A DNA stretch of 64,000 nt, from NCBI GenBank assembly GCA_965178125.1, contig OZ237763.1, forward strand, positions 434,001-498,000, given 5' to 3'. A program made the position numbers and the translations under genes. This document shows positions 24,501 through 52,279 of this stretch, in pieces; position 1 is the stretch's first letter; every line of letters begins with the position of its first letter. Source of the stretch: Bilabrum cf. latius. Its lineage: Eukaryota. The notes below the pieces were generated by a model. That model was not told the DNA's origin and did not search any database. It saw only the letters and a program-made list of their open reading frames with translations.

Positions 24501-26754
24501 TGGCAGACTATCGCGGGAATAGCGCGCCAAGCAGAGGACAAAGCTGAGGCAGGATCGGGCCGACAAACGCGAGATGAACAGGAATCTCACGGAGGGGGAG
24601 GTGCTAGCCATCAAGGGAGGAGGCGAAGGCGGAGATGCTGCGGGGGCCTGGTCGAGCGTGGGTCCCAAGTCCAGGCAAGAGGACAGACTTCTCATTCTGT
24701 CCAGCTGGGATTCAATCGTCAAAAACGCGAAGGAGGCCCCCGTGCCAGAGGTGTCCAAAGACATGGTCGGGACCACGGAATTTTGGGCGCACAGCAGCGA
24801 GGCCGAGCAAGCAGAGTGGGGACCCAGCGGGCCGGTGTCTCCCCTCCCGGCAGCAGGCGCAGAGCTCTCTGTATCCTCTGGAGCAGCGGTTCGTGCACCG
24901 CCATCGTCAGAAGCATTGCCCTCTGTGTCGCTGTTCGGCGTGTTTGACGGCCACGGTGGCACTGCCACGAGCGAGTACCTGAAGGATCGCATGGCGGCTG
25001 CACTGCTGGGCTCTTCTCCTCTCGCGCCTCAGGCAGAACAGGTTAGGGCGGCTCTGGAGTCTAGCGTCGCGTCTGCTGCCCTCCTCCGTCGGTTCGCGTC
25101 AAGGCCCGCAGCAAGCCTTCGGAATGCCATGCGGCTGATCGACGCAGAATACGAGGCGGAGCAGAGGAGGCTGGAGGCAGCGGGGGAGAAGTAGAAGGCA
25201 AGGAAGTTTCTGTACGCTGGCTCAACCGCGGTCTGCGTGGCAATCGTGGACGAGCCCGCTGCAGAGGGTTGGGCGGCGCCGCATGGTTCCGCTGTCACAG
25301 CGCCTCTCAAGCGGTCGGTGTACGTGGCCAACGTTGGTGACTGCAGGGCTGTGCTGGTCTCCAGCCGTAGGCCGGGAGCTTCCACCGTCTCGGCGGCTGC
25401 AGACCCAGAGGATGCAAGCGGGGGCTCGCAGCGTGCAGACGGGGGCGAAGGGCGATCACTTGGGCCTGGGTCTCGCGCGCACTTCGCCTCGTGCGTGCAG
25501 GCGCAGCAGGTGTCTATCGAGCACACGCCCGATGACCCCATCGAGTCAAAGCGGATCAGCGACGCCAACGGCTGGATCAAGAACAACATGGAGGTGCTCC
25601 GGCCTCGGGTGAAGGACGACATTGGCTACGATGCCTTCGTCCGCGATTGGGTTGCGAGAATTGACAGGCTGATCGGGCTCGACACGGACGAGGGGTCATC
25701 CGGGGGTTCGAGCGATGGCATGGCGCACGGCGGTCTCAGGAGACAGGCCAGCGTGAGCGGCATCCTCACTCGCAAGCTGCCCGGCATGGAGATTCCCACC
25801 GTGTGCGGTGACGTGGGCTGCGCCCGCTCCATCGGCAACCTCGACTACAAGCTCCCGAGGGCCAGAAAGTACCCGTTTGCGTTTCCTAAGGCACACAGCC
25901 GCGAGCTGTACGGCGATTTGGTCACTGCCAACGCCGACGTGACTCGGGTTGATCTTCCCCTTGACCCATCCAGGGAACAGTGCGGGCTCATGCCCCGGCT
26001 GCCGCCCGTGATCGGCCCTGACGGCGAGAAGGTGGCGACCGGGATCGAATGCACGCCTCCTGTAGGCGCTTGGGACGCGACTCCCGCGCGCGGCGGGGTT
26101 GTGGGTGCCACAGACTTGTCCAAGGGGGGGTCAGATGGCCAACGAGCGGAAGCAGCGGCCGCTGCCCCCGCTCCTGTTGGTGCGGGCTCTGGTGCTGGGT
26201 CTGAGTCCCGCCAGTCCCCCAGCGCTCACAGCAGGGCTGGGACGCTGGCGGCCGCAGGGTCGCCCCCCATGCCTGCCATGCACCGCATGGTCAGTCTGAC
26301 CGGCTCGCAATCGTCACACCAATAGGGTGCTGGGGATTCCGGTGCCGATGCTGGGTGCATGTGGCAGCCGGAATGCCTGGTGATCGCATGTGACGGCGTG
26401 TGGGACGTGCTAGGAAACAAAGACGCCGGCTGCGAGGCGCTGAGGGTGCTTCGAGGGCTGGACTACAGGGGCCGCTCACGGCCTCAGCGACGATCAAGGG
26501 AGGCAAAGAGGGTCTCGGCCGCTGGGAGGCCCGCGCGGGAGAGGCACGGGTTGAGCGCGATCGTCCCGGCATCGGAGCGGATGGGACTGGAACGGCCCGA
26601 GCACGAGGACAGGCGGGAGTGGGGCAGTGCCAGGAGCGCGGCTCGGCGGCTGGTTGAGCTGGCCTTTAAGATGGGCAGCCACGACAACGTGACTTGTGTC
26701 GTGGTGGACCTTCGGAGGCCACTGGGTGCCAGCGCTAGTGGTGGCAGTTCGTGA
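21586..26754 (+). CDS. PP2C/PPM-family Ser/Thr phosphatase with N-terminal low-complexity region and PH-like domain, ~1,722 aa
   Basis: One frame from ATG 21586 (in-frame TGA upstream at 21571) to TGA 26752 with 8 in-frame TAGs (21724, 21763, 22621, 23428, 23761, 24520, 25192, 26323). Ordered PP2C motifs RQED, FGVFDGHGG, AGSTA, VANVGDCRAVL, ARSIGN, IACDGVWD, GSHDNVTCVVVD span three TAG-separated pieces. Confidence 0.9.
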
Positions 26755-26945: not shown

Positions 26946-29900
26946 ATGGACATCCCGCGCCAAAACCCAGTATTTCTAAAAGAATTAATCTTTAGCGATT
27001 CCAGACCGGAATCTACCGCACAGCTTGACCTTACTGCAACAGTAGAGAGATTTGCAAGCTGGTTGGTGACAGTACGAGGTGCACTCACAACACCACTGGC
27101 ACGTGGCCGCGAAGCTGTCGATATGCACGAGGACGTCCTTCGCGAAACCGTTGAATCAATCCGCTTATGGATCAAAATGGAGCATTCTGGGTACGCGATA
27201 GTCGCCGAGCTTAAGAACGAAGAATCCTTTGAGGCAGGTGCTGTGTTGAGTCTCTTGGTTCACGCATTGCTGTACAGCAGTCACATCCCTACTCTGTAGC
27301 CTTTGCTTGTTGGGCTAATAAATGAACTAATCGTCAGTTGCCCCCTGGCAGTGACTGCACTAGACACGCCAGGCGAATACCGACCGAAACGGGAAGCAGA
27401 GCTGGACGGCTGGTCTCTAGCCATGAGTTCCACGTTTAAACTGCAGGGGGATCCTCTTGGTAGTAGATTAAGGACGCACACGCCATAGATTCACTTGTTG
27501 CTCTCGAAACTAGTTGCTCTTTCGAGCCAGGATCGAAGTGTGGTCAGCGACGGGGAGCGGTAGCAATGCGTGGGTGCAAGGCATGTTGCAGTCGTGTTTT
27601 CCAATGTGTCATGGGCGCTTGGGGCTATCATCCAATTCGGTATAGAGCATTACGGTCGTGGTCCAATCATTAGTGCGATATATGCCTCTGCTGGTGGGCA
27701 CTTGGCCACGTTGTGCTGCCAAATGCTCAGCGCATTCTTGGATTCTGACTTTGCTTCCATCAATGAGACCTGTTCTAGGCTTGATGGGAGGTCGGACTCT
27801 GCATCGACTGCCGCAGCTAGCAGTGCAGCTCAGGGCAGCTCCGACGGGTCCGTGCGTGCGATGGCGCTGGACACCGCACTGCTGGTGCTGCAGGCACTGG
27901 GCACTACCCTCTACTGGATCCCACATGCACGCAAAGAAGTCTGCAAGAACGAAGAATTCGTCGCCCGCTTGACATCACTGGTAGATGATAGAGTCACATT
28001 GATTGTTGGGGCTGCTGTCAGTGGGGAGGGGCCGAAGGCGCAAGGCACGCCGCCCGACCAGGACATGCGCTTGGCAGGGCCCGGAAAACCAGATGCAACT
28101 GCAGCATTTGAGGCCACCCAGGGCGCTAGCATGCCCGAGAAGATTCTGATCATGAGACAAGCAATGGCCAAGGTGCTGAAGTTGATCGACACGCGGCCTC
28201 CTGCCCAGATCGAGGTCACGGAAGGCACCAACCCAATCAGAGCAGCTGCCAGCCTGAGCGGTGGCAAGTCAGCGGAGGCAACGCCCCCTGCAAGCTCGGG
28301 AGCGGGCGCCGACGATGCAAGTCATTTTTTCTCGGTGCCGATGGGAGCTTCTTTCGGTTCGTCAAGTAAGTAGTGCGGAAGGGAGGGCCTGCAGGCTCCA
28401 ATAGACAGCCTAGGCTAGGGTGGATCGGGCTCATCGTCCACAGCATATGGGGCTGCATGCGGGGTCACACCGACGATGCCAATGCGCGGATCGTCCTCCG
28501 CCGCATCAGCGAGTGCTTCATCCGGTGCGGTGTCTGGTGGATCCTAGCGTTGTGATGCTTGCGCGAGGATGATGCCAGACCCGTTGCAGGAGCTCAGACC
28601 GCTGCCTCTGAAGAAAACACCCGCCGGAATTGCATTCCTGATGGGTGCCTTGAACGGAAACAGCGTGCAATTACTGCAAGGACAATCCCCTGAGATGCGG
28701 AGAAACACTATGGGGTGGGCTGGTAGCAGTTTTTACAACGTAGCTCGGAGTGCATCCCAATCAGTGCCTGCAGCGCTCGAGTTGGGCACCGGGGCCTACG
28801 AGATGGGGCTGCCGCCTGGCAGAGCACCGGCGCGAGTGAGACGATTCGACACAGCCGGTGGCGTGGCCGGTGGCCAAAAGCTTATTGACCAGGAGAACGG
28901 AGTCTTCTTGAAGACTCCAACTTCAGGGGGCATGTACGGGAGCGAGGTCATGGCAGGCAAAGTCCTCAAGCTAGAGGCCAAGGCATCTAAGTGGGTGCAC
29001 AGCCTGGACTTTGTCGGTGCCAATGCCGCACATTCCATAATTTTTGATGTTCCATACTTCCCAGTCGATACTGAAGAAGATGCTCCCGTTGCGTTCCAGC
29101 GCGTTCTTGCCCAAACGGCCCTGCCGATTAGCGGTGACACGATTCGGCTGGGGTCGTCCGACGCTGGCGTCACCCTGCACCACGACGGTGCTCAAGACGG
29201 TGTCGCATCTACCCTAGCCGATCACTGCTGGCTAGCTCCAATTGGACAGACTGGCTGCAGAAAGCTGGTCGTGCATTCGTACACCGACTCGCCGGAGAGT
29301 CGCGCGATTTCAGCAGACTGGCTTGCAGCCATGAAAAGACGATCCGTCGACTGCTAGTAGCTTGAGATGGCATGCTTCCCTTCCAATCCTCGTGAACAAG
29401 GCATCCTAGACTATGTTCTCCGATGCAGCCACGCAGACGTCTCTATCCTCTACAAATTCTGCCAGAAGAAGCATGACACTTAGCAGATCGATGACGTTCG
29501 TCGAGACGGTGGAACAGCCGTTCCACGAACGCCCGAGGGCTGGCCGAAGTGCCTACTTCCGTTCGATGTTGAGCTTCATACACTCAAGGAAGGGTACCAG
29601 ATCATTACCGACCCGCACCGTTTGCTGATTCCCGATCAAAGCTGGATCGATGGCATGAACTCAGGCTGTTTGCATCTGTTTCAGCCCCGCGTTTGGGCTC
29701 TGGTTGGTGCGGCTGGACAGGAAGCGGGAGGGGCTGGCGCAGGTCCTTCAGATATGGGTCTGAAAACTCACCCTCCCGAGTCAATGTGTACTACTGAGAG
29801 CAAGTCTGCGAGCACTGTACATTATCCCCAAAGCGTAGACTCTGCGACCAGCACGAAAGCGAAGCCTGGCTATCCATTTGGCACTGCCAGTGCAGTTAGT

Positions 29901-31592
29901 ACGACATCTGACGCATACCCAAAACTTCGATGGGATACTGAAAGGACGTCAGAAAGCGCTTCAAGCGCCAGTGCACAGTCCCTACTTAGTCCTAGGTCTC
30001 CGATGTGCCGCAAATTTTGCAGCGGCGAGAGCGAGGCTGAGGTGCGCGTTGTGTCCGGCCAGCTTCAAGCCTCTGGTAGAGCAGGTTCATACCTTTAGTG
30101 GCCCATCTGGTCTCCGGACGCGAACCGAAAGAGAGGTGATTGCATGGAAGCGAAGGGAGATTTGTTGAAAGCCGTCCGGGAATGGTTGCTAGCTTGTGTA
30201 GTAGATACGAATGCTAGCACTGGGTCAAGTGCCACCGACCCTACGGAAGCGCTTGCTATTCCTCCCGTGGCAGAAGCAACAGTGTCAGGCACTGGTCGAA
30301 AAGCAGATCCGCGAGCAGAACCGCACGCAAAGTCGCGGGTGATGCCCTGCGAGGTCGAGGTGGAGGTCGTCGACCATAATCGAGGAGCTGGAATTATCTT
30401 TCTGGCTTGCTCCATCGCTGAGTCCTCGGGCCGATTTCCAGTGATAGTGTCAGCTCCAGCATGGTATTGGGGCGATCGCCCATCCCTTTCCTGTCTGTTC
30501 TCACCGCAAGCTGCGGCTATCGCGCGATCCCTCCGAGGTCCCGAAGGAGAGCAGCTGCCTCGCGTAAGCCCAGACTGTCTTGTCCTCAAGCACTGCGCGG
30601 ATGAGATGGCGCTTGGCAACCTTAGGACGGTGTCAGATGCATTGGTTTCAGATGAACAACTCAAGCGAGTCCATGACGAGCTGCTTGCGATCAATCTAGG
30701 TCCAGAGACCCGGCCTCACACTCTAGCACCACTCAAGGGTGCATGGCTTCGATTGCGATCAGCAGCTAAGGCGGTCTTCAAGCGATCTGGTCTTTGCCTG
30801 CGACATATTGGCCTGATACAAGACATGGAGCGACGGCATAACCTCGAACCAGTGCCGCTGGAGACTGTTCTAGCTTGCTGCCTGCCGCAGATTGAATCCA
30901 CCTCCGGAGCGGCGCTTGCAAGATCGATGCGGCAGGCGAGTAGGCTAGTGACGTCTCTGCAGTAGCAGGAGCTTGTGTGCATGGTTTGTCTAGTTGCTCG
31001 TGCGTTTGGGTCGAAGACGGTCGATCTCAGCGATGCGCTGCTACCACGCGCCCTTGGGACGCAGCACCCCTACCGTGTCATAGGGTCAGAGGCAACTGCC
31101 ATGGCCTCAGCGGCTGGTTCGGATAGTCCCAGTGCACGCTTGTTGCCAGAGTGTGCTGCTTGGGACGTAATGCTGCGAAATTGCGGGCGTTTGAGCGAAT
31201 ATGCGTTGCAGCCACGTGATCCCATGGCTGGATCATCATTCGCTCCGGCAGATATTGCTGGTGTTGAACAAGCCATGTCGCGTGGTCATGATCGCTTCAG
31301 TGGTGACATCGACGGGCTCATAGATAATGTGAAATAGCTAGCCACGGAGCTAGCTTGTGCTTAGCGCAGCGGAAATATGAAGCTCGAGAGCGATATGCTG
31401 ATACAGATCGGAGCAGCTTGCGAGATGCATCGCGACTTGAGGCCGCTCGGCTTGCGGGCCATGCTGCGATTCGCCAGCATGTGCTTGAACACCGGTCAGT
31501 CTGGGGCGATGCTCCTAGTTAGTAGGTACATGGAGAGGCTTGGCCCCGATTTTCGTGCGATTGCAACGACCGCGAAAATGTTGCCGGCATAA
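26946..31592 (+). CDS. Hypothetical protein ~1,548 aa (N-terminal part possibly a helical repeat)
   Basis: ORF pieces at 26946, 27303, 27570, 28569, 29622, 30144, 30975, 31377 share one frame with ~13 in-frame TAGs (including TAGTAG at 29355-29360) and no TAA/TGA until TAA at 31590. No family recognised. Confidence 0.7.
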
Positions 31593-31834: not shown

Positions 31835-32051
31835 ACTGCAGCTCGGGGGCAGTGAATCCACACATCGTGATGCTGCCATTCATATCCAAAATCATTTCGA
31901 TTATCTTTTTGTTATCGACCCCGAGTTTGTCTCGGCTCCCTTGCTTCGGCATCCACCACCACGTTACCCGGAGCCACTTCGCCCATAGGATTGGCCTACG
32001 CAAACCGGTCTCCATGCGCGCGCCCTGCCTCCCCTGCCACAAGCTTAGACA
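31835..32051. repeat. Dispersed copy of the DNase I gene 3' end and downstream block
   Basis: Close match with indels to ~43739-43979 (ctgcagctcgggggcagtgaatccacacatc...ctgccacaagcttagacat); first ~35 bp also at ~37826-37864. Confidence 0.85.
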
Positions 32052-32358
32052 TGGAAAATGGTGCGCGCTGTAGCTCAAGGTGCGTCCAACCAATATCGAT
32101 CGCTGGTAGCCCGTCGGCCTCCTGCCAGATGTAGGTGTTCATGCTCTTTGTGGATGACCACCGTCCAAGACGCTGCACAATGCCGTGCTCGATGTCCAAC
32201 CGCACCCTCGTGGTGGTGCTGGTTATGCGGAAGCTGTGCCCATGCCACCCACTCGCGTCAGCATGGCAGCTTGCACAGCGCCGCACCAGGCGTACGATGT
32301 CGGCTGCGGCGATGTGCCGCATCTTGCGGCGACCGTGCGATGCGATCTCCAGGAACAA
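32052..32358 (-). mobile_element. Fragment of a tyrosine recombinase (DIRS/Ngaro- or Crypton-type)
   Basis: GHSFRITSTT...IVQRLGRWSSTKSMNTYI carries the HxxR, GRW and catalytic Tyr motifs of YR-element recombinases. No RT/RNaseH seen nearby. Confidence 0.75.
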
Positions 32359-32852
32359 CTGACTGTTGCGACAGGGTGCTTGAACTTCTGTGTTGCCTCC
32401 ATTGAATATGCGAGGACCTCATGTGAATTGGTCAAACTCATAGCGCTTTCCCTCAAGCAAGCATCTGACGTCCGGGTAGTTGGTCCGACTCACGCCGTAG
32501 ATAAAACTGTGTACCCGCCCCAGGTGTGACGCTACTCGCCATCACCGGCCACCCTGCCAGTGGCCCACAGGCGTGAGTATGGCATCCGTGGATCGCTTGT
32601 CTGCCAGTGTACCGGATCCATTGAGGGCAATGCTTGCTTTCATTAATCTTATCGGAGCTGTCTATCCTGGATGTGTTCAATGAATCAAATCCTGAAGACG
32701 AGGTGCCTGCCTCAGCAACACAATTTGTTAGATGGGACTGCGACATGTGTCTATGCCATCAACATCGGTCTATTTTCAAACAGTAATGCTAAGCAAAAAA
32801 CAGCTGTGGGGCATATCCAGAAGGCCAAACCAAGGTCTTTTTCCATTTTATA

Positions 32853-33121
32853 TTATAGGTCGCGCTGGCGTTCGAGGCTGACTCCTACTCGTGTTGCATG
32901 GCCCACAGAGACCAGGCGCTCTCGTTCAGAGGCACGCCCGCATCGTTGGCCTGCACCAACCGGCCCACAAACTCCTCCCAGCTGCTGGCGTACAGCGTGC
33001 CCGCGATCCCGGCCCACTGCCGCTGGGCCTACGACTGCAGCATGGCCCCATGCAGAGCCTCCCAGCCCTGAATCACCAGCTGCCGGGCGTCGCTCGGGAC
33101 GTTCTGGTCCTGCAGGCCATA
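32853..33121 (-). pseudogene. NAGLU: Alpha-N-acetylglucosaminidase (GH89) C-terminal fragment
   Basis: Hand translation ARQLVIQGW...MLQS*AQRQWAGIAGTLYASSWEEFVGRLVQANDAGVPLNESAW...HE*E resembles the NAGLU C-terminal domain (LDYANKQ.AGL...Y..RW..F). Absent from the ORF track because of TAGs. Confidence 0.65.
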
Positions 33122-33703: not shown

Positions 33704-36700
33704 TCAGACACTCTGGCGAACATCATTGACCTGCCGGCGCTGTTTCCACAAAGCTTCAGCAAGGCTGGTTGAATCGAATTTGCCGGCTGCCATGCTAGCA
33801 GTTCCAAGGCCAAGCTCGCGCGCAAGCTCATCGAGGACAGTACTCAGCGCCAACTAAGATTCGTGTGCCTCTTCTTCTGTTTCGCTCAGCAGAACTCGCC
33901 TCCTGGCCAGATACAGCCGAGCATCGGCGAATAGCATGTCATGCAGGTCAGCCCCGTAGATCACATCCATGTTCTCTTGTTGCGGAATTGCATTGGGCTT
34001 CCTGCCGGGCCGATTTCCCCCCTGCTCTGCATGGCCGGCCAGCTTTCGCACAGGGTCACTCACAGGCTTGCTAGTGATGATAAGTCGGTGCATGACCACA
34101 TTACCCGGGGTTTGGTGCTCGCCAAGCAATTTGCAGTACCTTTGATGGACATCGACCTACGTATCCCGGCCAAGAATCTTCTTAAGATCGCTAGCACCGA
34201 CGACTTGGGATTGTGAGTAGCCAGCCTTCACCTGAATCCGAATGACGTGAAAGATCTGCTTGGCAGCATTCTCGGGACTTGGGTTGCTTCGCAGCACCAC
34301 GACGAGATCAGAGCCGAACTAGTCCGGAAGCTCCTTGAAAATTTGACCGAATGCCGAGAACTGCCTGATTGCAACCCCAAGTCGACGCTTCTTGCGATCA
34401 GAGCCGCTATCCCTAAGCTCTCCCAAGCGAAGCTCTTGATCGGGCATGGACGGATTACTCCGATCCCAAGTCAGCTCCAACACCCCAGGTTTAGAGGAGT
34501 ACACGTCTCTGGGCAAAGAAGGCAGGCGGCCCTTGTCCAGTACCTTGGACTTGAAGTTGCGCCGCAAAGACTCGGCGATTACCAATTCGTAGTCCTCACC
34601 GAAGTCACCCGTCGGAAGATCAAGTGCCTGTTGCTCCCGAACCGTCAAGAAGATGTCTCGGGTGAGATCGATCTGCAGGGCTACTCGTGCGTATGCCAGA
34701 TTAGGGAACTGTACGCACCCCGAGCCCAGCTGCGGTTTGATTTGATTGAACTTCTGTTCCTCAGGAGAGTGGTACATCAACCACTAGTCATCGTGCCAGT
34801 TACGCAGCAGAACATCAAGCCCATCTTCGTACTTCAGACGATCTGAGGCGACCTGATCTGGCGGCAGCACTTCTTTGCCGACCTGTTCCAAATAGAACTT
34901 GACAGTGGACAAAGATACTAGCGGCATGACCTGGAAAGGGTTATCGAGGTCGAGTATCGCTTGCTTGCTTCCTGCATCACCTGCGAGAGAAGCTCGCGAG
35001 AGAGCCACTCCAAACCTGCTGAAAAGCGACTTGCGGTCCGACATCGCTCTAATGTACGATCTGAACTTGACACTCGTCCCCTGGAGCGCCCCCAGGCTCC
35101 TTGCAATTTCCCCGTTCAGCATGTATGCTCGCACAACCCGGTCATTGGCGGATTTCGCGGAGGCCAGTACTTCGTTGTCTTGCAGGTGCCTCTCAGCAAC
35201 TTCCAGGGTGATCCTGCCAACCGGGGCACTATTGGTATCCAGTGCATTCTGAACCTATGAATCAGGCTAGAGTGAGCGCACAGCGTGTTCCAAGCTGGGC
35301 TGAACATAGTACCCAGCCTGGTGCCACCACTGACCAAGCTTTAAGCCACCCCGCTTGCGCAAGCAGAATGCCAAGGCTAGAACTGCATCAGCTGCTGTCA
35401 CTACGCGGCGTTCAAATGGCGCACCTTGCTGCTATTCAGAAACGTCGTCAGGTTCCTGATCATTTAAGAGAGGTTGCCGAAGCAGCATGAGGTGCAGTTC
35501 CGGTTCAGAGTACACATTGGGCATTGCGTTGACGAGAAACTTGTCGTCCTGAAGCACCTCGCGCCCTTCAACTGGCCCATACACTTCTTTAGCCAGGCCC
35601 TTCTACGAGCCAGTCAAGAAGACCGTGGGCCTGCGCTACTCAATATTTATCATGTCGGCCATGATCGTCCAGAACTAGGATACCATTTCGCTGTAGTGCA
35701 AGTCCCTGGGACGTTCATCAGGCATCCGCACCTTTTGAGCTTCGTCAATGGCCAGCACAACGTGGATGTTGTACTCCGACAGCCAGTCTCCCATGAGCTG
35801 AGGAGTGAGCTAGTTGATTGTCCTGGCCCAGTCGGGCGGACTGCTGGCGTTTATGATCCCTGCTTTGGCAAGGCCGGCGGCAATCAACGCAACTGGGCTG
35901 GCATATCTCAAGTCACCGATATTACCAGTAGGGTCCTTGACGTAGATACCGACATGGGTAACGCTGGTTTGCGAGGTCGTTTTCTGGTGCGAATCCATAG
36001 ATGGCTCTCCCTAGTATTCAAGTGCCCAACGCACGAGCGCCTTTCCAAAGATCACATTACGCATCAGCTAGGACTTGCCGTATCCTCTGAAGCCGGTTGT
36101 CACACCGCCACGCATGACAGATGACCCGAAAGTTGTGGTCGCGAACGCTTCCTTCAAAAAGACGTCCAACCAAAACTCACGCTCAGACCCACACCTTGCG
36201 TCCACGATAGGAAGAACTGGTGCATCCGCAAATCCGTCGAAGCTGCTCACAGCAACAAGTGCCTCTCCAATCAGCAGAAGCGAATCTCGGACCGCTGCTA
36301 CCAGTGAGCTGCCACCTGCATCTGCTGCACTGGCGATGCGGTTCCTCACAGCAGTCTCCAGGTCGGGTCCCTTGAAATCGCCCTTGATTTCAAACTTTAA
36401 GTCTTTGGCGCGTTCGCTGAGTCGTGGAACCCAGCTGCAGTCAGGCACATCCAAGTAGTGCGCGTCCTTGAGGTAGTCCTTCGGGGGGCGGCCTTCCGCG
36501 ATATCGGCAAGGGCCTCCTCTCGAGCTCTCCTTGTTGCTGCTGGCAATTCCTTCAGCACGTCTTGAACGGTAGCAATAAGCGACTGTATGCCACGATCAT
36601 AGTCTTGGGACAAAATGAAGTCCTAGAACTTGGTATTCAAGACAATGTGTAGCAGACCACGATCAACAGCGCGCAACTCAGCGGCTGGCGCAAACCAGGG

Positions 36701-37180
36701 CTCTTCCTCGCTGACCGCTCGGCCGTTTGGTGCTTTATCTGCCCCTTCTTCGAATGCACCAAGCACGATGCTTGGCGATATATGCCGGTCTTGCTTCAGT
36801 TCTTGCACGAGAGAAGGTGGTACACCTTCAAGTACGGTTGCAAGCTCATCGAGCACGGAGCTCTGTACCGTCACGTCAGCACAAAACTAGACACTGGGAC
36901 TGGATTGGATATTTCTACTCATCCTACGGATTTTACTCGTCATTATCACAAAGTTTTGAAGACGTAGGGAAGACTCGAACGCTGAAATCCAAGTCTGCTT
37001 TGCTTGCACGGCAGCTGCTCGCCCCCCAGATTGGGAGTCTTGAACTGTCGAGCATAACCTTAGCGATTGCCATGCCAATGGTTTATGTGTTGCAGCTATC
37101 GAGGCGGGGGCGCGCACCCTATTCGTGCTTGCCCGAACGCGCAAAGCCTGCGAAATGTTATGGTCAGCACTCTTCTGCAT
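33704..37180 (-). CDS. P-loop NTPase + restriction-endonuclease-like protein (Crinkler/CR-type), copy A; start uncertain
   Basis: Pieces starting at 36874, 36613, 35998, 35134, 34780, 34129 lie in one frame joined across TAGs; TGA at 33704-33706. Walker A GFRGYGKS, Walker B hhhhDE, C-terminal GSDL...IRIQVK (D...QxK). Confidence 0.75.
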
Positions 37181-37530
37181 TAGTTTCCAGCGTCGTTGAC
37201 AACATGAGCACTCAAGTACTAGCGTGCGTCTTACCTACCGAAATTGAAGCCCGGCGAAGACGTGCGAACTGCTCTATCTCCCTTGAAAACGAAACTTGTT
37301 CAGTGCTTTGCTGATTGACAGCACCTGCCGCTGGGAAGCCCGCATATCTCAAGACTCCTAGCTGCAAGCTTCTATAAGCTGTTACAATAATATGGACGGA
37401 AGAAATGCACGATAATCCCGGGGTAGGACGCAGGCGTGCTACAAGGAAGTCTGTGAAGCATGGTCCATCGTTCAATCCCATTATATCTGATCTGCACGAT
37501 TTAAAGTGTTCGACCCAAGGGACCCAGGGA

Positions 37531-37864
37531 CAAGCCTATGCAATTTGGGGACACCAAATGAGTCCCCAAATCCCCAAATTACTCATTTTGAAAACAGTCA
37601 TTAGGGGTGCCTCACTCGCCGTTCCGATCGGTAGCCGAGGGGTAGCAGCGTGGTGGAGCTCGTTGCTATGAGCAATCCAATGCGGGATGCTCGTGTGTGT
37701 GCCAGAACAGCCGGGTACTGGCTACCCAGGCGCCTCATGGTACCGGCCACTGCCTACAGACAGCGTGGGTACACTTCCTAAAGACGACGAGTCCGCGGAG
37801 GAGCCCCCAGCGCCCACCTTTTGGGCTGCAGCTCGGGGGCAGTGAATCCACACATCATGATGCA
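37531..37864. repeat. Repeat block duplicated at ~43428-43777, with an ATTTGGGGAC/GTCCCCAAAT hairpin
   Basis: Near-identical to 43428-43777; inverted repeat at 37543-37571. Confidence 0.85.
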
Positions 37865-37871
37865 CCTGTTT

Positions 37872-38527
37872 TCAGCCCAGGTCCGCCAGCAGCCTGTACA
37901 TGACTGGGTTGTCGTAGATGCCCTCTGGGGAGGACCCCACGCCCGCCATGCCGCCACCGTGAGAGGTCGCGTTCGCCGCGGCCGCCGCAACATGGGTCAG
38001 GTTCCCGAAGATGCCCACGCGCCCGCCCCCGTTGTTGAGCACGCACCACACGAAGTCCTGTCCGAAGAGCCCCTCCGTCTCCTGCCAGATGGGGTACTTG
38101 AAGGCAGCCAGGTCCAGCACCAGCATGCGGCCCATGGGCACCCCCGTGACGAATGCCTTGATCTGAGGGGGCTTCCAGAAAGCCGGCTCGAAGGAGAAGG
38201 CCCACCCCTGGATCACCCACACCGCGTCAGGGTCCACCTCGGCCATCGAACCGAACGTTCGCGAAGCCACCGAGGCCAGGAACTAAGTGTCGTTGGACTG
38301 CGGCAGCATCTGGTTATAGCAGACCGCATTGAACAGGCGCGGCGTCCCCGGCTGCCCCAGCCCACACATAGTCTGGTTGTAGAACTGCAGGAAGTTCCTC
38401 TGGATCTGGTCGAATAGAGGGTCCGTGGGCTCGATGAACCCGTCCTCGGTGTACTCCTCCGGCATGCCCGCCCAGTAGGGAGACCTCGTGATGGTAGCGC
38501 CAGGAAACAAGTCCTGCAGGGCCAGCC
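37872..38527 (-). pseudogene. NAGLU: Alpha-N-acetylglucosaminidase (GH89) central catalytic-domain fragment (orphan exon)
   Basis: LQDLFPGATITRSPYW...IEPTDPLFDQI...YNQMLPQSNDT*FLASVAS...DPDAVWVIQGWAF...RMLVLDL...FVWCVLNNGGG...GVGSSPEGIYDNPVMY; TAG at 38283 joins two ORF-track pieces. Truncated at both ends. Confidence 0.85.
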
Positions 38528-38555
38528 TGCCACGCCGTTTGCAGCGGATCATGAT

Positions 38556-41500
38556 TCATAGAACCACAGAACTAGTAACATCACTGGCAAGCTTGCGCTT
38601 CTCCCAGTGGGCTTCAGCAAGGTTGAGTGAATCGAAGGTGCCGGCCTTCTCACTTGCGATTCCGAGAGCAAGCTCTCCAAAAACCTCTTTGAGGACAGCC
38701 CGCAACACCTCCTACGCTTCACGCGCTTCTTCTTCAGTATTGCTCAGCAGGACCCGTCTCCTAGCCAAGTACAGTCGCGCATCGGCGAATAGCAACTCCG
38801 GCAGGTCATCTCCGTAGATCACATCCATGTTGTCTTGCTGAGGGATTGGCTCGGGCTTCCTGCCAGGGCGCTGCTTCCCCCCCCTCGCTACAGAAATGGG
38901 GTTTCTCGTCTCCGGGTGGCTGGCCAGATTTTGCACAGGGTCATTAACAGGCTCGCTAGTGATGAGGAGTCGGTGCATGACCACGTTGCCAGAGGTCTAC
39001 TCCTCGCCAAGTAACTTGCAGTACAACCGGTGAGCCTCTGCCTGCGCATCCTGGCAAAGCAATTTCTTCAATTTGCTAGCGCCAAGTACTGGTTTTTGCG
39101 AGAACCCGGCTTTGACCTGGATACGAACCACGTGATAGATAGGCTTCTAGGGGCTGGCCTTGGTTCTCTGTTTCAGCACCATGGCGAGATCAGCTCCGAA
39201 TCGGTCTGGAAGCTCCTTGAATAGTTGACCAAAGGCCAAGAATTGCTAGGCCGAGGCCACCTGCGGACTTCCACTGTCAACGATTCCCCCACCGTCAATG
39301 CGACCCAACTGAAGCTCTTGATCGGGCGCGGACGGATTACTTCGATCCCAAGTCAGCTCCAACACCCCAGGTTTAGAGGAGTACACGTCTCTGGGCAAAA
39401 AAGGCAGGCGGCCCTTGTCCAGTACCTTGGACTTGAAGTTGCGCCGCAAAGACTCGGCGATTACCAATTCGTAGTCCTCACCGTAGTCACCCGTCGGAAG
39501 ATCAAGTGCCTGTTGCTCCCGAACTGTCAAGAAGATGTCTCGGGTGAGATCGATCTGCAGGGCTACTCTTGCGTATGCCAGATTGGGCAGCTGCACATGC
39601 CCCGAGCCAAGCTGCGGCTCAATCTCGTTAAACTCCTGTTCTTCGGGAGAGTTGTATACTACCCACTAGTTATCGTGCCAACCTCGCAGCATAGCATCGA
39701 GCTAATCTTCATAATACTGACGATCTGACGCAACCCGATCTGGCGGGAGCAATTCGTTGCTTACCTCTTCCAAGTAGACCTTGACTGTAGACACAGACAC
39801 TCGTGGCATGGCTTGGAAAGGATCATCATAGTTGAGCATCGCTTGCTCGCTTGCAGAGTCTGCGGCAGAGGCTCGCACGAGCGCAACTGCAAACCTGCTG
39901 AAAAGCGTTTTGCGATCCATCATCGCCTTGACATAATTTTTGAAGTTAACGCTAGTCCCTCCAAGCTCCCCAAGGCTCCTTGCAAGTACCCCATTCAGCA
40001 AATACGCGCGAACGACCCGCTCGCGGGCAAATTTCGCAGCTTCAAGCACCCGGTGGTCTTGCAGGTACCTCTGAGCAATTTCGACCGTAATTCTGCCGAC
40101 CGGCGCACCCTTGGTATTCCGTGCGTCCTGAACCGATGACCCAGACTAGATTAAGCGCACAAGGTGTTTCAAACTTGGCTGCACAAGGTACCCAAGCTAG
40201 TGCCACCACTTCCCAGTCTTAAGGTCATCTCGCTTGCGCAGGTAGTACGTTAAGGCCAGAACTGCATCAGCCGCAGACACCGAAGGCCTTTTGAGCGGGG
40301 CGTTAAGTTGCTTGGGATAGACGCTGGCGGGTTGCTGTCTTTTTGGCTGCTAACGAAGCAGCATGAGGTGCAGTTCCGGTTCAGAATACGCATTTGGCAT
40401 TGCGTTGACGAGAAACTTGTCACCCTGTAGCACCCGGCGCCCATGCACCGGGCCATACACTTCTTTAGCCAGGCCCTTCTGGGAGCCGGTCAAGAAGACC
40501 GTGGGCTTGCCCTCCTGCATCCTCAACATGTCTTCCAGGATATTCCAGAACCTGCGGGCCATAGTACGGTAGTGCCAGTCCTCGGATCCTTCGGGTGGCA
40601 TCTGCACCTTTTCAGCTTCATCAATAGCCAGCGCAACATGGATGTTATGCTCTGAAAGCCAGCGTCCCATGGAGGTGGGGGTGAGCTCGTCTGGCATGGC
40701 CCATTTAGGCGGACTGTCGCCATCAATGAGCCCTAGCTTGGCCAGGCCAGCAGCTATCAACGCGACTGGGCTGGCATACCTCAAGTCACCCATATATCCG
40801 GTGGGGTCCTTGACGTAGATACCGACATGGGTCATGGTCGGTACCGAGCTCATCCTCGGGTGGGATGCAAGGCTTGCTGCGGACTTCGAACCCGAGGAAC
40901 TATCGCCCGATGGTGCAAGTGCCCAACGCACGAGCGCCTTGCCGAAAATCACGTTCTAAATAAGCTCAGACTTGCCGTATCCTTTGAATCCGGTTATCAC
41001 ACCGCCGCGCATAACTGAAGATGCCCCCAATGTGTCGGCCGTGAGAGATTCTGAGATGAACAAATCCAACCAACCCTCACGCTCAGACCCACACCTTGCG
41101 TCCACGATCGGTAAAATGTGGGCATCAGTACGACCAAGAACGCTATGCACTTTAACTAATGCCTCTCCAATCAGCAGAAGCGAATCTCGGACCGCTGCTA
41201 CCAGTGAGCTCCCTTCTGTATCTGCTGCACTGGCGATGCGGTTCCTCACAGCAGTCTCCAGGTCGGGTCCCTTGAAATCGCCCTTGATTTCAAACTTCAA
41301 GTCTTTGGCGCGTTCGCTGAGTCGTGGAACCCAGCTGCAGTCAGGCACATCCAAATAGTGCGCGTCCTTGAGGTAGTCCTTCGGGGGGCGGCCATCCGCG
41401 ATGTCGGCAAGGGCCTCCTCTCGAGCTCTCCTTGTTGCTGCTGGCAATTCCTTCAGCACGTCTTGAACGGCAGCAATAAGCGACTGTATGCCACGATCAT

Positions 41501-42044
41501 AGTCTTCGGACAAAATGAAGTCCTAGAACTTGGTATTCAAGACAATGTGTAGCAGACCAGGATCAACAGCGCGCAACTCAGCGGCTGGCGCAAACCAGGG
41601 CTCTTTCTCGCTGACCGCTCGGCCGTTTGGTGCTTTATCTGCCCCTTCTTCAAATGCACCAAGCACGATGCTTGGCGATATATGCCGGTCTTGCTTCAGT
41701 TCTTGCACGAGAGAAGGTGGTACACCTTCAAGTACGGTTGCAAGCTCATCGAGCACGGAGCTCTGTACCGTCACGTCAGCGCAAAACTAGACACTGGGAC
41801 TGGATCGGATATTTCTACTCATCCTACGGATTTTACTCGTCATTATCACAAAGTTTTGAAGGCGTAGGGAAGACTCGAACGCTGAAATCCAAGTCTGCTT
41901 TGCTTGCACGGCAGCTGCTCGCCCCCCAGATTGGGAGTCTTGAACTGTCGAGCATAACCTTAGCGATTGCCATGCCAATGGTTTATGTGTTGCAGCTATC
42001 GAGGCGGGGGCGCGCACCCTATTCGTGCTTGCCCGAAGGCGCAA
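38556..42044 (-). CDS. P-loop NTPase + restriction-endonuclease-like protein (Crinkler/CR-type), copy B; start uncertain
   Basis: Tandem paralog of copy A in one frame across TAGs to TGA 38556-38558. Walker A GFKGYGKS, Walker B VALAIDEA, GADL...VRIQVK. Confidence 0.75.
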
Positions 42045-42415
42045 AGCCTGCGATATGTTGTGATCAGTACGTACTCTTCTGCATTAGTTTCCAGCGTCGT
42101 TGACAACATGAGCACTCAAGTACTAGCGTGCGACTTACCTACCGAAATTGAAGCCCGGCGAATACGTGCGAACTGCTGTATCTTCCTTGAAAACGAAACT
42201 TGTTCAGAGCTTTGCTGATTGACAGCACCTGCCGCTGGGAAGCCCGCATATCTCAAGACTCCTAGCTGCAGAGCTTCTATAAGCTGTTACAATAATGTGG
42301 ACGGAAGAAACGCACGATAAGCCCGGGGTAGGACGCAGGCGTGCTACAAGGATGTCTGTGAAGCATGGTCCAGTCCACCGTGACGACTCCGAGTCGGATT
42401 TAAAGTGTTCCACCC

Positions 42416-43400
42416 GAGACAATTCCCGGATCCTCGGCCCTTCGGCCATGCCGGCGATAGCACGGAGCACCTGGCGAGGCCGAGACGGCCGCCTCATCCT
42501 ACGATGGCTCACTGGGCGTTACCCTCGGGAAGGGACCATGCACCACAGAGGAGAACGCTCGGTACAGGCCGAGATGATGCGCGCGGAAGCCACGCACACG
42601 GACGTACCCTGGGCACCCACGGCAGTGGGGAGAGCACTATGGATGGAACACGTCAAAACGGAGCAGGTGCTGACACAGGAACACCGAGGGGACGCAGACT
42701 CCTTGGAGCTCTCTATCGTCCAAGGCACCCTCGAACAACTCCAAGAACGGTGCCGACGTGCAATCCGACGCTTGTAGCAGAGGGCCAATGAGAGCTTCGG
42801 ACGAGCCATTGAGGGGTTGTAGTCCTGCCAACTGTGCGTAGCTGAACAACTCAGCTCGGGCAGCCCAACAGCCCGAGACCTTGCAATCCGAGCCCACCCG
42901 CTCGGACACATACTGAATCCCTCCGAGAACTAGTTCATCGGAGAGTGGATGACAGGAACGCTGGGCCGTTGCGCCCTCAGCAAGGAGCTTCAGGTGCTAG
43001 AACGCATCTGGGCGAAGGGAACGGCAAGGCTAGCACGCTCCCGGATCTGGAGCAGGCAACAAGTCCTAGAGGCGGACTATATGGCGGTCTGGTGGCGAGA
43101 GGCTGAACGCCTCACGCCTCGCCAGGCCTTCCTCGCGCATGCTCCCTCACTGCGGACGTTCGACTGGGTCTGACTCCCAGGAGATCTCAACGCGATGCGC
43201 TTAGGACACGGGTCCTAGGCATGTATCGGTCTTAACCAGACCAACTATTTCTTCAGAGGCCTTTTCAGGTCCTGACTGGCTCCGCCAACGCGGGTACAGC
43301 TGGGTCCCCTGTTAAGGTGCGCGTTACTTTGGTGGCAGTCCTCGGATTGTCTCTGGTATTGAATTGCGTGCGAAAACTCTATTTTCTCTCTCTCTCTCTC
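42416..43400 (+). mobile_element. 5'-truncated non-LTR retrotransposon-like element with (TC)n tail, copy 1
   Basis: Absent at the equivalent site of the duplicated segment (~37515). Coding 3' end (LILRWLTGRYP...RTFDWV-TGA 43173) is read through 3 TAGs, followed by a 3' UTR and a TC tail at 43385-43400. Possible CACCC duplication at 42411/43400. No RT domain visible. Confidence 0.65.
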
Positions 43401-43883
43401 ACCCCAGGGTCCTGGGCCAGGGACCCTCAAGCCTATGCAATTTGGGGACACCAAATCCCCAAACAAGCCTTTTTGAAAACAGTCATTTGGGGGTTAGATC
43501 TATTTGGGGACGATCCAGGGATGCCTCACTCGCCGTTCCGATCGGCAGCCGAGGGGTAGCAGCGTGGTGGAGCTCCTTGCTATGAACAATCCAATGCGGG
43601 ATGCCCTTGCGTGTGCCAGAGCAGCCGGGTAATGGCTACCCAGGCGCCTCATGGTAACGGCCACTGCCTACAGACAGCGTGGGTACACTTCCTAAAGACG
43701 ACGAGTCCGCGGAGGAGCCCCCAGCGCCCACCTTTTGGGCTGCAGCTCGGGGGCAGTGAATCCACACATCATGATGCTGCCATTCACATGTCAAAAATCA
43801 TTTCGATCATCTTTCTGTTATCGACCCCGAGTTTGTCTCGGCTCCTAATGGCAGCCCTTGCTGCGGCATCCACGACCACCACG

Positions 43884-45536
43884 TTACCCGTGACCGGACC
43901 CGCCCTCGCCCATAGGATTGGCCTACGCAAACCGGTCTCCACACGCGCGCCCTGCCTCCCCTGCCACAAGCTTAGACATCGACTCCTCTTTGGACTGCAG
44001 CGGAAGCCCATCTCCGCTACTGTACCTGCTACCGACCTTCACGCCAGGGCGCGCTGCAGCAGAGGCTGTTGCACCGCTGGCCTGAGAACCACTTTTCGCT
44101 GCAGCCACCGCCGCGGTCGATTTGACTGCACCACAGAGCAACACCGCGAGTCCAAATCCACCCACAGCTCCCACAGCAAGCCCTCCAACTGCCGCTCCTA
44201 CCACAACCCCTACCCCGTACTGGTCACTCGAGGACCCCTCACCGCCGCAACCAGCCCCATCCCCAGGATCCTCTGATAGACCACCCTGTGCTGCCCCCGG
44301 CGTGCTACTAGGCGACACGATCGGAGATGGCGATACCGCTAGGTCAGGACTGGCACTTGGCAATGACGTGGCTGCACTAGGGATCGCGCTGGTGCTCGGT
44401 GGCGCGCTGGGACTGGGTGTGGTCGAGATGCTCGGACTGCTTGTTGGGGATGCCGACGGTAATTGCTACGGGTCACCGGAGCAGTTTCTCTCCGGTACAC
44501 CCTCTGCCAACCCCCCGTTTGGAATGAAGTCCACAGCTACCGGGAAATGGTCCGAGACCCGCTGTACGAAGGCATAGTCGGTCAGGTTAAGCGCAACGTC
44601 AAATCGGTGCACCCGCGCGCTCGTCTGGTTCAGCCTGGGCAAGAGCGATTGACTGGCTACGATGCGATCGTACGCGCAGCTAGATCCCGTGGCCACATTA
44701 GTGTCCGCGTCATCACCAATAAGCCAGTGGTAGAGGTCGGTCCTGTTTCTCATGGCGATGCCCGGCCACTCGCTCTCGCGGACGTACGTGCAGTCTGCAT
44801 TGAAATCTCCGACGATTATGACGTTGCCGGATCCGTTGCTGCAGTGCACGCCTAGAGATCCATTTCGCATGATGTCTAGCGTCGGAGAAGATCTGCTATA
44901 GGGCTGCACTACGCTGTTTGTGCCGCCACCGGTGCTCGGACCAGTGCCGAAACCTTCGCCGTTCCACACCGTTGCCACCCAGCGTGCGAACTTTTCGAGC
45001 TGAACAATTTCTTCGACTACCAAATCTGGCTTCATGTGAATAGATATGAATGCAAACGAGTTTGACTCGTCTTCAAGCTCTGAGCCAGCTCCATCCAGAA
45101 CCCGAAAGCGAACCGCGAAGGGATGATACGTAAACTTGCTTGCTAGCTCTTCCGGTGGTTCGGTTGCATTTACGGCACGCAATATGTTCGATCGATAAAT
45201 AATAGCGTGCTGCTCCTTCCGCCCAGCTCCAGATCGTTTGCTTAGGAGCATTTCATACTCTCCACCGGTCGACGGTGTGCCGCCACTGCCGGCCGGCCCC
45301 GACAACGAATTGACGAGTGAAAGCAAGTCCTGCGGAGCCGATTGGTCAATATCCTACACTTCTTGAATTGCGATCAAGTCAAAGAGTCTGACCGTGTTTG
45401 CTAGCGCAGATAGCTGGTTGGGATCCCCAGCTAAAGTATCACCAAACTACTGCACGTTCCATGACGCTACCTTGACCGCACCAGAGGGAGCCACCATCAA
45501 AATAATCGCTATTAGAGTCGATTGATTGACCAACAT
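43884..45536 (-). CDS. DNase I-family endonuclease with signal peptide, Ser/Pro/Thr stalk and C-terminal TM anchor, ~550 aa
   Basis: ATG 45536 MLVNQSTLIAIILMVAPSGA; motifs VASWNVQ*FG, IAIQEV*D, ISIHMKP, IIVGDFNADC, CAYDRIV, VSDHFPV; TM GVGVVVGAAVGGLAVGAVGGFGLAVLLC; TAGs at 45447, 45354, 44466, 43923; TAA at 43884. Confidence 0.9.
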
Positions 45537-45620: not shown

Positions 45621-46332
45621 CAGACTCCTTGGAGCTCTCTATCGTCCAAGGCACCCTCGAACAACTCCAAGAACGGTGCCGACGTGCAATCCGACGCTTG
45701 TAGCAGAGGGCCAATGAGAGCTTCGGACGAGCCATTGAGGGGTTGTAGTCCTGCCAACTGTGCGTAGCTGAACAACTCAGCTCGGGCAGCCCAACAGCCC
45801 GAGACCTTGCAATCCGAGCCCACCCGCTCGGACACATACTGAATCCCTCCGAGAACTAGTTCATCGGAGAGTGGATGACAGGAACGCTGGGCCGTTGCGC
45901 CCTCAGCAAGGAGCTTCAGGTGCTAGAACGCATCTGGGCGAAGGGAACGGCAAGGCTAGCACGCTCCCGGATCTGGAGCAGGCAACAAGTCCTAGAGGCG
46001 GACTATATGGCGGTCTGGTGGCGAGAGGCTGAACGCCTCACGCCTCGCCAGGCCTTCCTCGCGCATGCTCCCTCACTGCGGACGTTCGACTGGGTCTGAC
46101 TCCCAGGAGATCTCAACGCGATGCGCTTAGGACACGGGTCCTAGGCATGTATCGGTCTTAACCAGACCAACTATTTCTTCAGAGGCCTTTTCAGGTCCTG
46201 ACTGGCTCCGCCAACGCGGGTACAGCTGGGTCCCCTGTTAAGGTGCGCGTTACTTTGGTGGCAGTCCTCGGATTGTCTCTGGTATTGAATTGCGTGCGAA
46301 AACTCTATTTTCTCTCTCTCTCTCTCTCTCTC
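45621..46332 (+). mobile_element. 5'-truncated non-LTR retrotransposon-like element, copy 2
   Basis: Appears identical to 42695-43400, with a shorter 5' end and a longer (TC)n tail (46311-46332). Confidence 0.7.
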
Positions 46333-47920: not shown

Positions 47921-49714
47921 TCAGTGCCCCCTCGTGTGCCTCCGCCCGTCGAGTCCTACCTCCACAGAAGCCTCCTCTCTCTTGCCCTCCTCCTATTCAA
48001 GCGCAGGAGCGGGGCCCTTTTTCCCCACGGGCCGGAAGCTGGGATCGGCCCCGTCTCCAGTCTTCTTCTACTTTCCTCCCTTCGATCCCTTGCCTCCTTT
48101 AGTCTTCTTGTTCCCCGACTCAATGACCACCACTCCCGTGATCGGATCATCTCCGCCCATCTCGCCTCCTCCGTCCTGCTCTTGTTCTCCCGAGTCGTTG
48201 CCCTGCCCCTCTACCTCTTCGTCTTCAGGGTGCACGTCTTCCTCCCCACCAGCCTGCTTCGGCTCGTCGTCCGCGGCTGGCGCGGGCAGCCAGCCCGCAG
48301 CGGCTGCGGCAGCACCACCACCGCTGCTGCTCCTCGCCTTTTCACCCTGAGAGGAAGAAGAAGAGAGTTTCTTTGACTTGCTGCCGCCCTCCTTGGCGTC
48401 CCCCGTGGCAGCCGATTCCATCGCATGGATGGCCCGGGCTCGCTCGTCGAAGAATACGCCGGAGGACCATCGCACCAGCTCGATGGAGGCAGATGCCATC
48501 GCCGCACCGCCACGCACCAGGCCATGGCCCATCCCGCAGAACACCTTGGCATCCACGGTTGACGCAACCCGGAGCGGCAAAGACACGCACACCCCGCGCG
48601 AGGCAGAGTCGCAGGCGCCCGCGGCCCGAGAGCAGCCCTCCGCAGCGATCTCGGCGCCCTCCAGCACCTGCGAGCTGAGAGAGCGCGGCGCCTGCGGAAC
48701 AGGCACGTCAGCCGGGGACACTAGTGATTCCTGGGAGCCGGCCCCCTCTGCCCGTGGCAGCATGCCAACCGCCTTGCGCGCGGCGCCCAGCGGCAGCGGA
48801 ACCGCCGCTCCGATCTTCTCGTCGGCGGCCAGCACCAGTTTGGCCACCCCAATCCTGGCGTCGGCACGCCCCGCGGCCCCCAGGCACCCCGTGGTCACCA
48901 CTTTGACCGCCCCCGTACCTGCGCGGACGGTCCGCTCGGCCAACGACTCTGTGGCAATCCTCAGGTGCTGCACCCTGCCCGATGCCTCCGAGAGTACTGC
49001 GGCCAGGGCGGATTGGGCGTCAGCCAGCGCCTTCGTTGTTCCCTCCCTCAGAGGGGCGGTCCTGGCCAAAGCGGCCGCCTGCACGGCGGCTAGGGCTCCC
49101 CTCGCGGCGGCAAGTGCCTCCGCTGCCGCCTCCTGCGGCACGTCCTGCGGGGGGAGCTCGGCCCACCTGGCCCTCACGGCAGTGACTTGTTCCCTGGCGC
49201 TGCGGAGGGCGAAGGCCGCCTGCTCGAAGGGCTTCAGGCCGGACACCTGGGCGGCCACTTTGTCCAGCTGTTCCCCCACGCTCTGCAGGGAACTGCCCGC
49301 CGACTTGGCCATGTCTGACTCGCTCAGCCTCGTCGCCTGCTCCTCCGCTGCTTGGGCGGCCCGCCCGAGACCCACCACGACCGCGGCAGTGGCGTCGGTG
49401 AGCGGCTGTCGCACGTACTGCTGGGTGGCCCCTGCTGCCATCTGCCTTGCGCGGGTGAGGCCGCTGGCGGCCTGGAGGTAGGCGTCCCCGAGCGCCGTGA
49501 CGAGGCGGTGCTGGAGCTTGTGCTGCTCGTCGAACTGGGCTGCTCGCTCCACTGCAGAGGAGCAGAGCTCCAGGGCCCTGCCGAGAAGTACGTCGAGTTT
49601 TTCTCTCTGCGCGTGGTGCATTTGGGTGGGGCGGAGGACATGAACGAGAATGGGCGGAGGGTGCAACTTGCTACGGGGTTGCGCCGGGTCGGAGCTTTGG
49701 GTGGATCTCGGCAT
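47921..49714 (-). CDS. Ala-rich amphipathic/coiled-coil hypothetical protein with charged tail
   Basis: 548-aa ORF with strong GC3 bias, extended 49 codons past TAG 48068 (second TAG inside) to TGA 47921-47923. Confidence 0.7.
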
Positions 49715-51902: not shown

Positions 51903-52279
51903 TAATTGTTGCTTCTGTCAATGTGCGGTTGATGTGACTGTCACCTGAGGCACGCTGGTCGTTTGGGTGAACTTTTTGAGTAACGTGACATCAGGCAGAA
52001 TCTCCGATCCTCGCGCGACTCTGGGTGGAGCTACGGCCACACCAACAGGTACCACGCCAGTGTCACGATGGCAATCGAGGCATAGCAATTATCGCAAAAT
52101 TGAAGCTCATACATCGGTTGGATCGTGAGACTGCACGCATATAGCAGCGCCCGTGCGAGTTCCGTACTGCGACTGTACGCTATACTCTCTGACGGGCCAT
52201 ATTCTTCGCCTCTCAGGCATCAAACAGTAGAGTTGCAGATCATTCAGATAGAGCATCACTGATTGGCGCAACTGTTGTG

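Follow-up and report, generated by a model that had tools for sequence, protein, structure and literature searches.

In-frame TAG as a probable glutamine codon in a tandem pair of paralogs and their neighbouring genes in a GC-rich eukaryotic DNA stretch

The nuclear code of the fornicate Iotanema spirale translates UAG as glutamine (Gln, Q) and retains two stop codons, UAA and UGA (Panek et al. 2017, PMC5304391; Fussy et al. 2022, PMC9161772), and some TAG-recoded phages are assigned to 'genetic code 15' (PMC9523058), in which TAG is likewise Gln and TAA and TGA terminate. We analysed a stretch of 64,000 nucleotides (contig OZ237763.1 of assembly GCA_965178125.1, Bilabrum cf. latius, forward-strand positions 434,001 to 498,000; hereafter the window, in whose numbering all coordinates are given), which contains a tandem pair of paralogous genes, copies A and B, and six further open reading frames (ORFs) with TAG in frame. 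Judged from its sequence, UAG is very probably a sense codon here, most likely for Gln, with TAA and TGA still serving as terminators. Its apparent codon table coincides with that of I. spirale, with UAG alone reassigned, to Gln, and UAA kept as stop; a diagnostic T-to-G change in the GTS motif of eRF1 is reported for I. spirale. The window is GC-rich (53-68%), and nothing in it points to a fornicate. The code-15 phages differ in that phage genomes, not cellular ones, are recoded, whereas the gene content of the window looks eukaryotic (PP2C, RCC1, cadherin, C-type lectin, TIG, DNase I and NAGLU domains).

Other departures from the standard code offer further comparisons. UAA and UAG both encode Gln in ciliates, dasycladacean and other ulvophyte algae, diplomonads, oxymonads and an aphelid (PMC5304391). 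The rhizarian exLh translates UAG as Leu (L) (PMC5304391), and reassignments confined to UAG, or split between UAA and UAG, have been described from ciliates (PMC11687900, PMC10553269); in these, as in the window, UAG no longer shares its meaning with UAA, but Leu does not suit the window, where L is worst or near worst in the single-domain Pfam test described below and is the majority residue at no conserved TAG site. Blastocrithidia and Amoebophrya sp. ex K. veneficum use all three stop codons as sense (PMC12153298, PMC12005148) and, like the window, have in-frame stops in functional protist genes, but they are AT-rich with TGA and TAA in frame, whereas the window is GC-rich with only TAG in frame. 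The code type (UAG = Gln, UAA/UGA stops) is already published; what is unusual in the window is the GC-rich setting, because stop-codon reassignment is usually tied to AT-rich genomes (PMC12153298), and no GC-rich eukaryote with UAG = Gln was found in the literature, the coverage of which was incomplete.

Copy A (33704-37345, minus strand) is a frame of 1213 codons with 17 in-frame TAG, and copy B (38556-42044, minus strand) one of 1162 codons with 12; both end in TGA, and neither contains an in-frame TAA or TGA. With the standard code, the longest ORFs in this region do not exceed 216 amino acids. The copies stem from a tandem duplication (33719-37467 matching 38577-42372) with 81% nucleotide identity, and their proteins share 75% identity over 1139 aligned residues. 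All indels between them are whole codons, leaving one open frame in each, and both probably start at a common Met (MTSKIRRMSRNI), located at 36943 in copy A and 41843 in copy B. The proportions of synonymous and nonsynonymous differences (pS, pN) are 0.320 and 0.143, with an overall ratio of nonsynonymous to synonymous substitution rates (dN/dS) of 0.38; the ratio is 0.23-0.66 in each 150-column segment of the alignment, including those downstream of many TAGs, and the copies are under purifying selection over their whole length. TAG thus stands in frame within genes that are kept open and under selection. From their sequences, the copies appear to have arisen by tandem duplication of a functional gene, the product of which is a putative P-loop-type protein from a multi-member family.

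Divergence along the pair is uneven: dS is 0.016-0.038 over the first ~300 alignment columns and 0.27-0.80 over the remainder. About 98% identity was seen in the 5' ~300 aligned codons together with the upstream leader (36400-37467 and 41300-42372). Because this near-identical 5' part adjoins a diverged remainder, the 5' end looks like the product of gene conversion, or of a partial recent re-duplication.

Across the window, the eight ORFs comprise 15,455 codons with 104 in-frame TAG and neither TAA nor TGA, while each of the other five frames of the same ORFs holds 129-332 TGA, 30-61 TAA and 109-153 TAG. TAA and TGA together make up ~2-2.5% of codons in these other frames, so that frames of 1213 and 1162 codons without either lie far beyond chance; arithmetic from an off-frame rate of ~2% per codon gives a probability of ~1e-10 for the shorter one. 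Translating TAG opens up frames of 5172, 3491, 1722, 1548, 1213 and 1162 codons. With TAA as sense, two ORFs gain only 20 and 11 codons and none are joined. As this gains almost nothing and the ORFs end in TGA (six) or TAA (two), TAG alone appears to be reassigned, and TAA and TGA are terminators, not sense codons, within the window.

In its usage, too, TAG resembles a Gln codon. The counts of TAG, CAG and CAA are 10, 165 and 10 in the GC-richest gene, and 38/87/42, 17/32/29 and 12/27/20 in others; the TAG share of Gln codons is accordingly 10/185 in the former and 38/167, 17/78, 12/59 and 13/64 elsewhere, that is, 5-23%, including genes of 55-67% GC. The use of TAG tracks that of CAA, as would suit a minor synonymous codon poor in GC. 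The resulting table, with TAG as Gln, matches NCBI table 15.

Two explanations that also place Gln at TAG bear on these counts. The first is a code of the ciliate, dasycladacean and hexamitid type, in which TAA and TAG are both Gln and TAA is merely rare through high GC content. It would be the commonest eukaryotic stop-codon reassignment (PMC5304391) and likewise turns stops into Gln, yet with CAA and CAG used 150 and 416 times in the eight ORFs, ~37 in-frame TAA would be expected beside the 104 TAG, against none observed; TAA-as-sense extensions of 20 and 11 codons that join no ORFs, and the termination of two of the eight ORFs at TAA, make it very unlikely. The second keeps the standard code and has UAG edited to CAG in the mRNA by U-to-C conversion, which would likewise put Gln at each TAG and let TAG and CAG exchange between the copies. 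Known U-to-C editing systems repair TAA and TGA as well, however, so editing hardly accounts for frames in which both of these codons, which it would also mend, are at 0/15,455; we consider it highly improbable.

An earlier note on this DNA had pointed to three positions at which TAG in one copy faces CAA or CAG in the other, and all three are present on the minus strand in the codon alignment of A and B (site coordinates start at the low end of each codon). Two of them stand as exchanges: A codon 1078 (CAA, 34112-34114) faces B codon 1016 (TAG, 38997-38999) in LLGEH-Q-T against LLGEE-TAG-T, and A codon 676 (CAG, 35318-35320) faces B codon 616 (TAG, 40197-40199) in WWH-Q-AGY against WWH-TAG-LGY. 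At the third, after LMLLR, the pairing of A codon 624 (CAA, 35474-35476) with B codon 565 (TAG, 40350-40352) is ambiguous, because B has TAG CAG where A has CAA (CGT TAG CAG CCA, with one extra codon, against CGG CAA CCT); MAFFT placed the TAG of B opposite a gap. Two further TAG/CAG sites had escaped that list, A codon 581 (TAG, 35603-35605) facing B codon 522 (CAG, 40479-40481) and A codon 1063 (TAG, 34157-34159) facing B codon 1001 (CAG, 39042-39044). A codon 426 (TAG, 36068-36070) lies right behind the Walker A motif (GYGKS-TAG-L) and corresponds to E in copy B, and A codon 854 (34784-34786) is a TAG common with B codon 793 (39666-39668) in WHD(D/N)-TAG-W.

All 29 TAGs of the two copies fall into five shared columns (10 codons), two positions in the upstream extension of A only, one opposite a gap, and 16 columns opposite sense codons. 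The partners in these 16 columns are Q in four (CAG three times, CAA once), R in four (AGG twice, CGT, CGA), E in three (GAG each time), S in two (TCG twice), and K (AAG), G (GGG) and A (GCC) in one each. The note's description of the remaining TAGs as shared or facing R, E, S or G thus holds, but omitted the K and A partners; and while the codon alignment does bear out Q as a partner, R is equally frequent. More than one mutation separates TAG from the partner in 7/16 cases (CAA, AGG twice, CGT, CGA, GGG, GCC). In a likelihood comparison of the partners, Q ranks top, with R 2.6-3.1 and E 3.1-6.6 natural-log units lower, depending on the matrix; the preference for Q from this pair by itself is modest, and the pair by itself does not name the amino acid. 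Among Q-conserved codon pairs in the diverged part of the alignment, CAG/CAG occurs 10 times, CAA/CAA seven and CAA/CAG five, and those bearing TAG are CAG/TAG (three), TAG/TAG (three) and CAA/TAG (one), so that TAG mixes with CAA and CAG about as these two mix with each other.

Decaying pseudogenes, or a C-to-T repeat-mutation process making TAG from CAG, could be suspected where genes are duplicated, and three of the 16 TAG-versus-sense columns are indeed CAG/TAG, differing by a single C/T transition. This explanation is already contradicted and barely deserves credence: no TAA, TGA or frameshift occurs across 1162-1213 codons, CAA would mutate to TAA, which is absent, and 75 further in-frame TAGs lie in single-copy genes of the window. 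The earlier contention that the TAGs do not reflect nonsense decay is strongly supported by these findings, by the dN/dS of 0.38, by the seven sense partners more than one mutation away from TAG, and by the single open frames, whole-codon indels and five shared TAGs of the copies; three of the five sit in the diverged part, at a dS of 0.3-0.8.

The identity of the amino acid is indicated by homologues. A full-library search with copy B returned 33 relatives, all of them fragments of 59-575 amino acids, of which at least four (P0004, P0009, P0010, P0023) terminate precisely where A or B has a TAG; this is the pattern that standard-code gene calling on TAG-bearing relatives would be expected to produce. 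At the A426 site, 12/15 family fragments have Q (H in two, D in one), at A854/B793 all three aligned fragments have Q, and at B565, the TAG after LMLLR, both fragments do. With the family sites equally weighted, Q comes first and E second, 2.5 natural-log units lower.

A second line of evidence comes from an RCC1-like protein encoded elsewhere in the window (52277-62752, plus strand), in which the RCC1 motif (W/F)G....G-Q-(L/T)(G/C) occurs five times, with CAG in the Q slot three times and TAG twice. The TAG at 53720-53722 (plus strand, residue 482; PYG-TAG-LGRGG) occupies the Q slot and aligns with the Q of the UVR8 GQLG motif, and that at 54098-54100 (plus strand, residue 608; PVG-TAG-TCRGG) occupies the Q slot of the RCC1 signature. 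In a Pfam substitution test, the five TAGs of one RCC1-like domain were replaced by each of eight amino acids, or by X as a neutral control. Q gave the top score in all three RCC1 profiles: 94.9 for PF25390 (K 89.6, E 88.5, L 82.6), 80.5 for PF13540 (runner-up R, 78.1) and 39.9 for PF00415 (runner-up R, 38.7). PF13540 and PF00415 also favour Q on a segment of 1001 residues. The proposal of the earlier note that TAG acts as a synonymous Gln codon is therefore upheld by the family homologues, the RCC1 GQLG motif and the substitution test, not by copies A and B alone.

Several observations weigh against Gln, or against reassignment as such. R is as frequent a partner of TAG as Q in the A/B pair (4/16 each), and E follows with 3/16. 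At the B363 site, the 15 family fragments have R in seven, L in five, Q in two and K in one, and V stands in 3/4 at A1063 and 2/2 at B1016, all in poor alignments. On the 1001-residue segment, PF25390 scores L highest (319.0) and Q low (218.7); as the matched stretches varied between three and five, these scores were not relied on and the test was repeated on the single domain. In alignments with Protein Data Bank (PDB) structures, TAG30 of a DNase I-like protein lies opposite T/S and TAG61 opposite R/K, a TAG in a NAGLU fragment lies opposite T, T, R, K, R, V and V, and the TAGs of a PP2C protein fall outside the aligned blocks; these TAGs are on variable or unaligned positions and are uninformative either way. 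Altogether, the TAGs on conserved Gln positions are a small sample, and many others are on variable sites. A GHL15-like ORF (50952-51902, plus strand) ends in TAG followed by TAA (51897-51902), where TAG may be either the last Gln or the terminator; no true C-termini in the window are fixed by orthologues. Finally, the 64-kb window contains no tRNA genes, and its ORFs scanned against Pfam include no eRF1; no Rfam family matched in the window.

Some of these points would suit a sense TAG with a meaning other than Gln (E, K or R being likeliest), or one decoded ambiguously by near-cognate tRNAs: the A/B partners (R 4, E 3 and K 1 against Q 4), the R/K opposite TAG61 of the DNase I-like protein, and the distance of only 2.5 natural-log units between Q and E in the site-weighted family likelihood. 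Against this, the conserved family sites are all Q (12/15, 3/3, 2/2), the GQLG slot is filled by TAG twice, and Q scores above E, K and R in three of three profiles on the single domain; on the long segment it does so in PF13540 and PF00415. We regard such an assignment as unlikely, though less so than the explanations weighed above. If UAG is a Gln codon, TAG, CAG and CAA would interchange between the copies as synonymous codons, and positions of Gln would, as is usual for this residue, change to E, R, K and S as well. Going by published examples, UAG would be decoded by a Gln-charged tRNA carrying the anticodon CUA, and eRF1 may have lost the ability to recognise it, as proposed for I. spirale.

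The product of copies A and B is a putative P-loop-type protein. In copy A, a Walker A (GFRGYGKS) and a Walker B motif (VLAIDEA) are visible, and the Pfam family AAA_22 matches copy A only, with an E-value of 0.0018 and 19 bits, below the cut-off of 27 bits; PADLOC and NCBIfam returned no match for the protein. An AlphaFold model has a mean predicted local distance difference test (pLDDT) score of 56 and is confident only for about residues 80-460, and a Foldseek search of the PDB with this model gave no match at E <= 0.001, the weak ones being mostly AAA+ ATPases. A PD-(D/E)xK nuclease at the C-terminus was an impression from the sequence that no tool backed, and was discarded. A search for relatives near the full length of copy A found none, and one for shorter relatives gave two already-known fragments. 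A scan of bacterial and archaeal genomes yielded no relative; of 41 pattern matches, none was confirmed.

Two NAGLU pieces lie beside the copies. A fragment of the NAGLU TIM barrel (37875-38552, minus strand; Pfam E-value 8e-55), corresponding to residues ~260-470 of homologues of ~775 amino acids, begins two codons past the TGA of copy B in the same frame, and a weak C-terminal piece (32762-33061, minus strand) lies downstream of copy A in the frame of A. The first ~259 NAGLU residues were not found, and no clear splice sites were seen at the pieces, which may represent a gene interrupted by the two paralog copies, exons, or relics.

A DNase I-like gene (Exo_endo_phos; 43884-45536, minus strand, 550 codons, four TAG, ending in TAA) is flanked by a direct repeat of 706 bp (42695-43400 and 45621-46326) with 100% identity, which could reflect a recent duplication, mark the two ends of a mobile element, or stem from misassembly. 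Two more repeats with 84-86% identity (37524-37863 matching 43417-43777, and 31836-32055 matching 43740-43982) surround the paralogs; they lie next to each other at 43417-43982, and around copy A some 5.5 kb separates them. The second of them takes in the 3' terminus of the DNase I-like ORF (SMSKLVAGEAGRA.GDRFA-TAG-ANPMGE), with the TAG present in both repeat copies.

The remaining genes of the window include, on the plus strand, an ORF of 5172 codons (1081-16599; 10 TAG, ending in TGA) with C-type lectin, EGF, ephrin-receptor-like, cadherin and TIG domains and C-terminal membrane spans, one of 1722 codons (21586-26754; eight TAG, TGA) with a PP2C phosphatase domain, one of 1548 codons (26946-31592; 13 TAG, TAA) without a Pfam family, and that of the RCC1-like protein, with 3491 codons (38 TAG, TGA), RCC1-like repeats, TIG domains and membrane spans. 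An ORF of 597 codons on the minus strand (47921-49714; two TAG, TGA) likewise has no Pfam family. The giant ORFs at 1081-16599 and 52277-62752 are both intron-free; in each, extracellular modules are joined to a Cys-rich stretch and to membrane spans at the C-terminus. Gene orientation forms three blocks, plus to 31.6 kb, minus to 49.7 kb and plus from 50 kb. By gene content, the source looks like a GC-rich, intron-poor eukaryote.

The code of the organism may already have been published, in which case the present finding would be a re-discovery. Only tentatively do we suggest that a eukaryotic lineage of high GC content, outside the ciliates and caviomonads, has independently reassigned UAG alone to Gln. 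Codes in which UAG and UAA differ in meaning are rare (PMC5304391, PMC10553269), and this would be a second non-ciliate case of their uncoupling towards Gln, as well as a counter-example to models in which AT pressure drives the capture of stop codons. A GC-rich case would also allow a test of how UAG is freed by eRF1 and a tRNA(CUA) without mutational codon loss. Standard-code gene calling splits such genes, and the database relatives of the paralogs are all short fragments, several ending at TAG; annotating this genome and those of its relatives would need TAG to be read as Gln.

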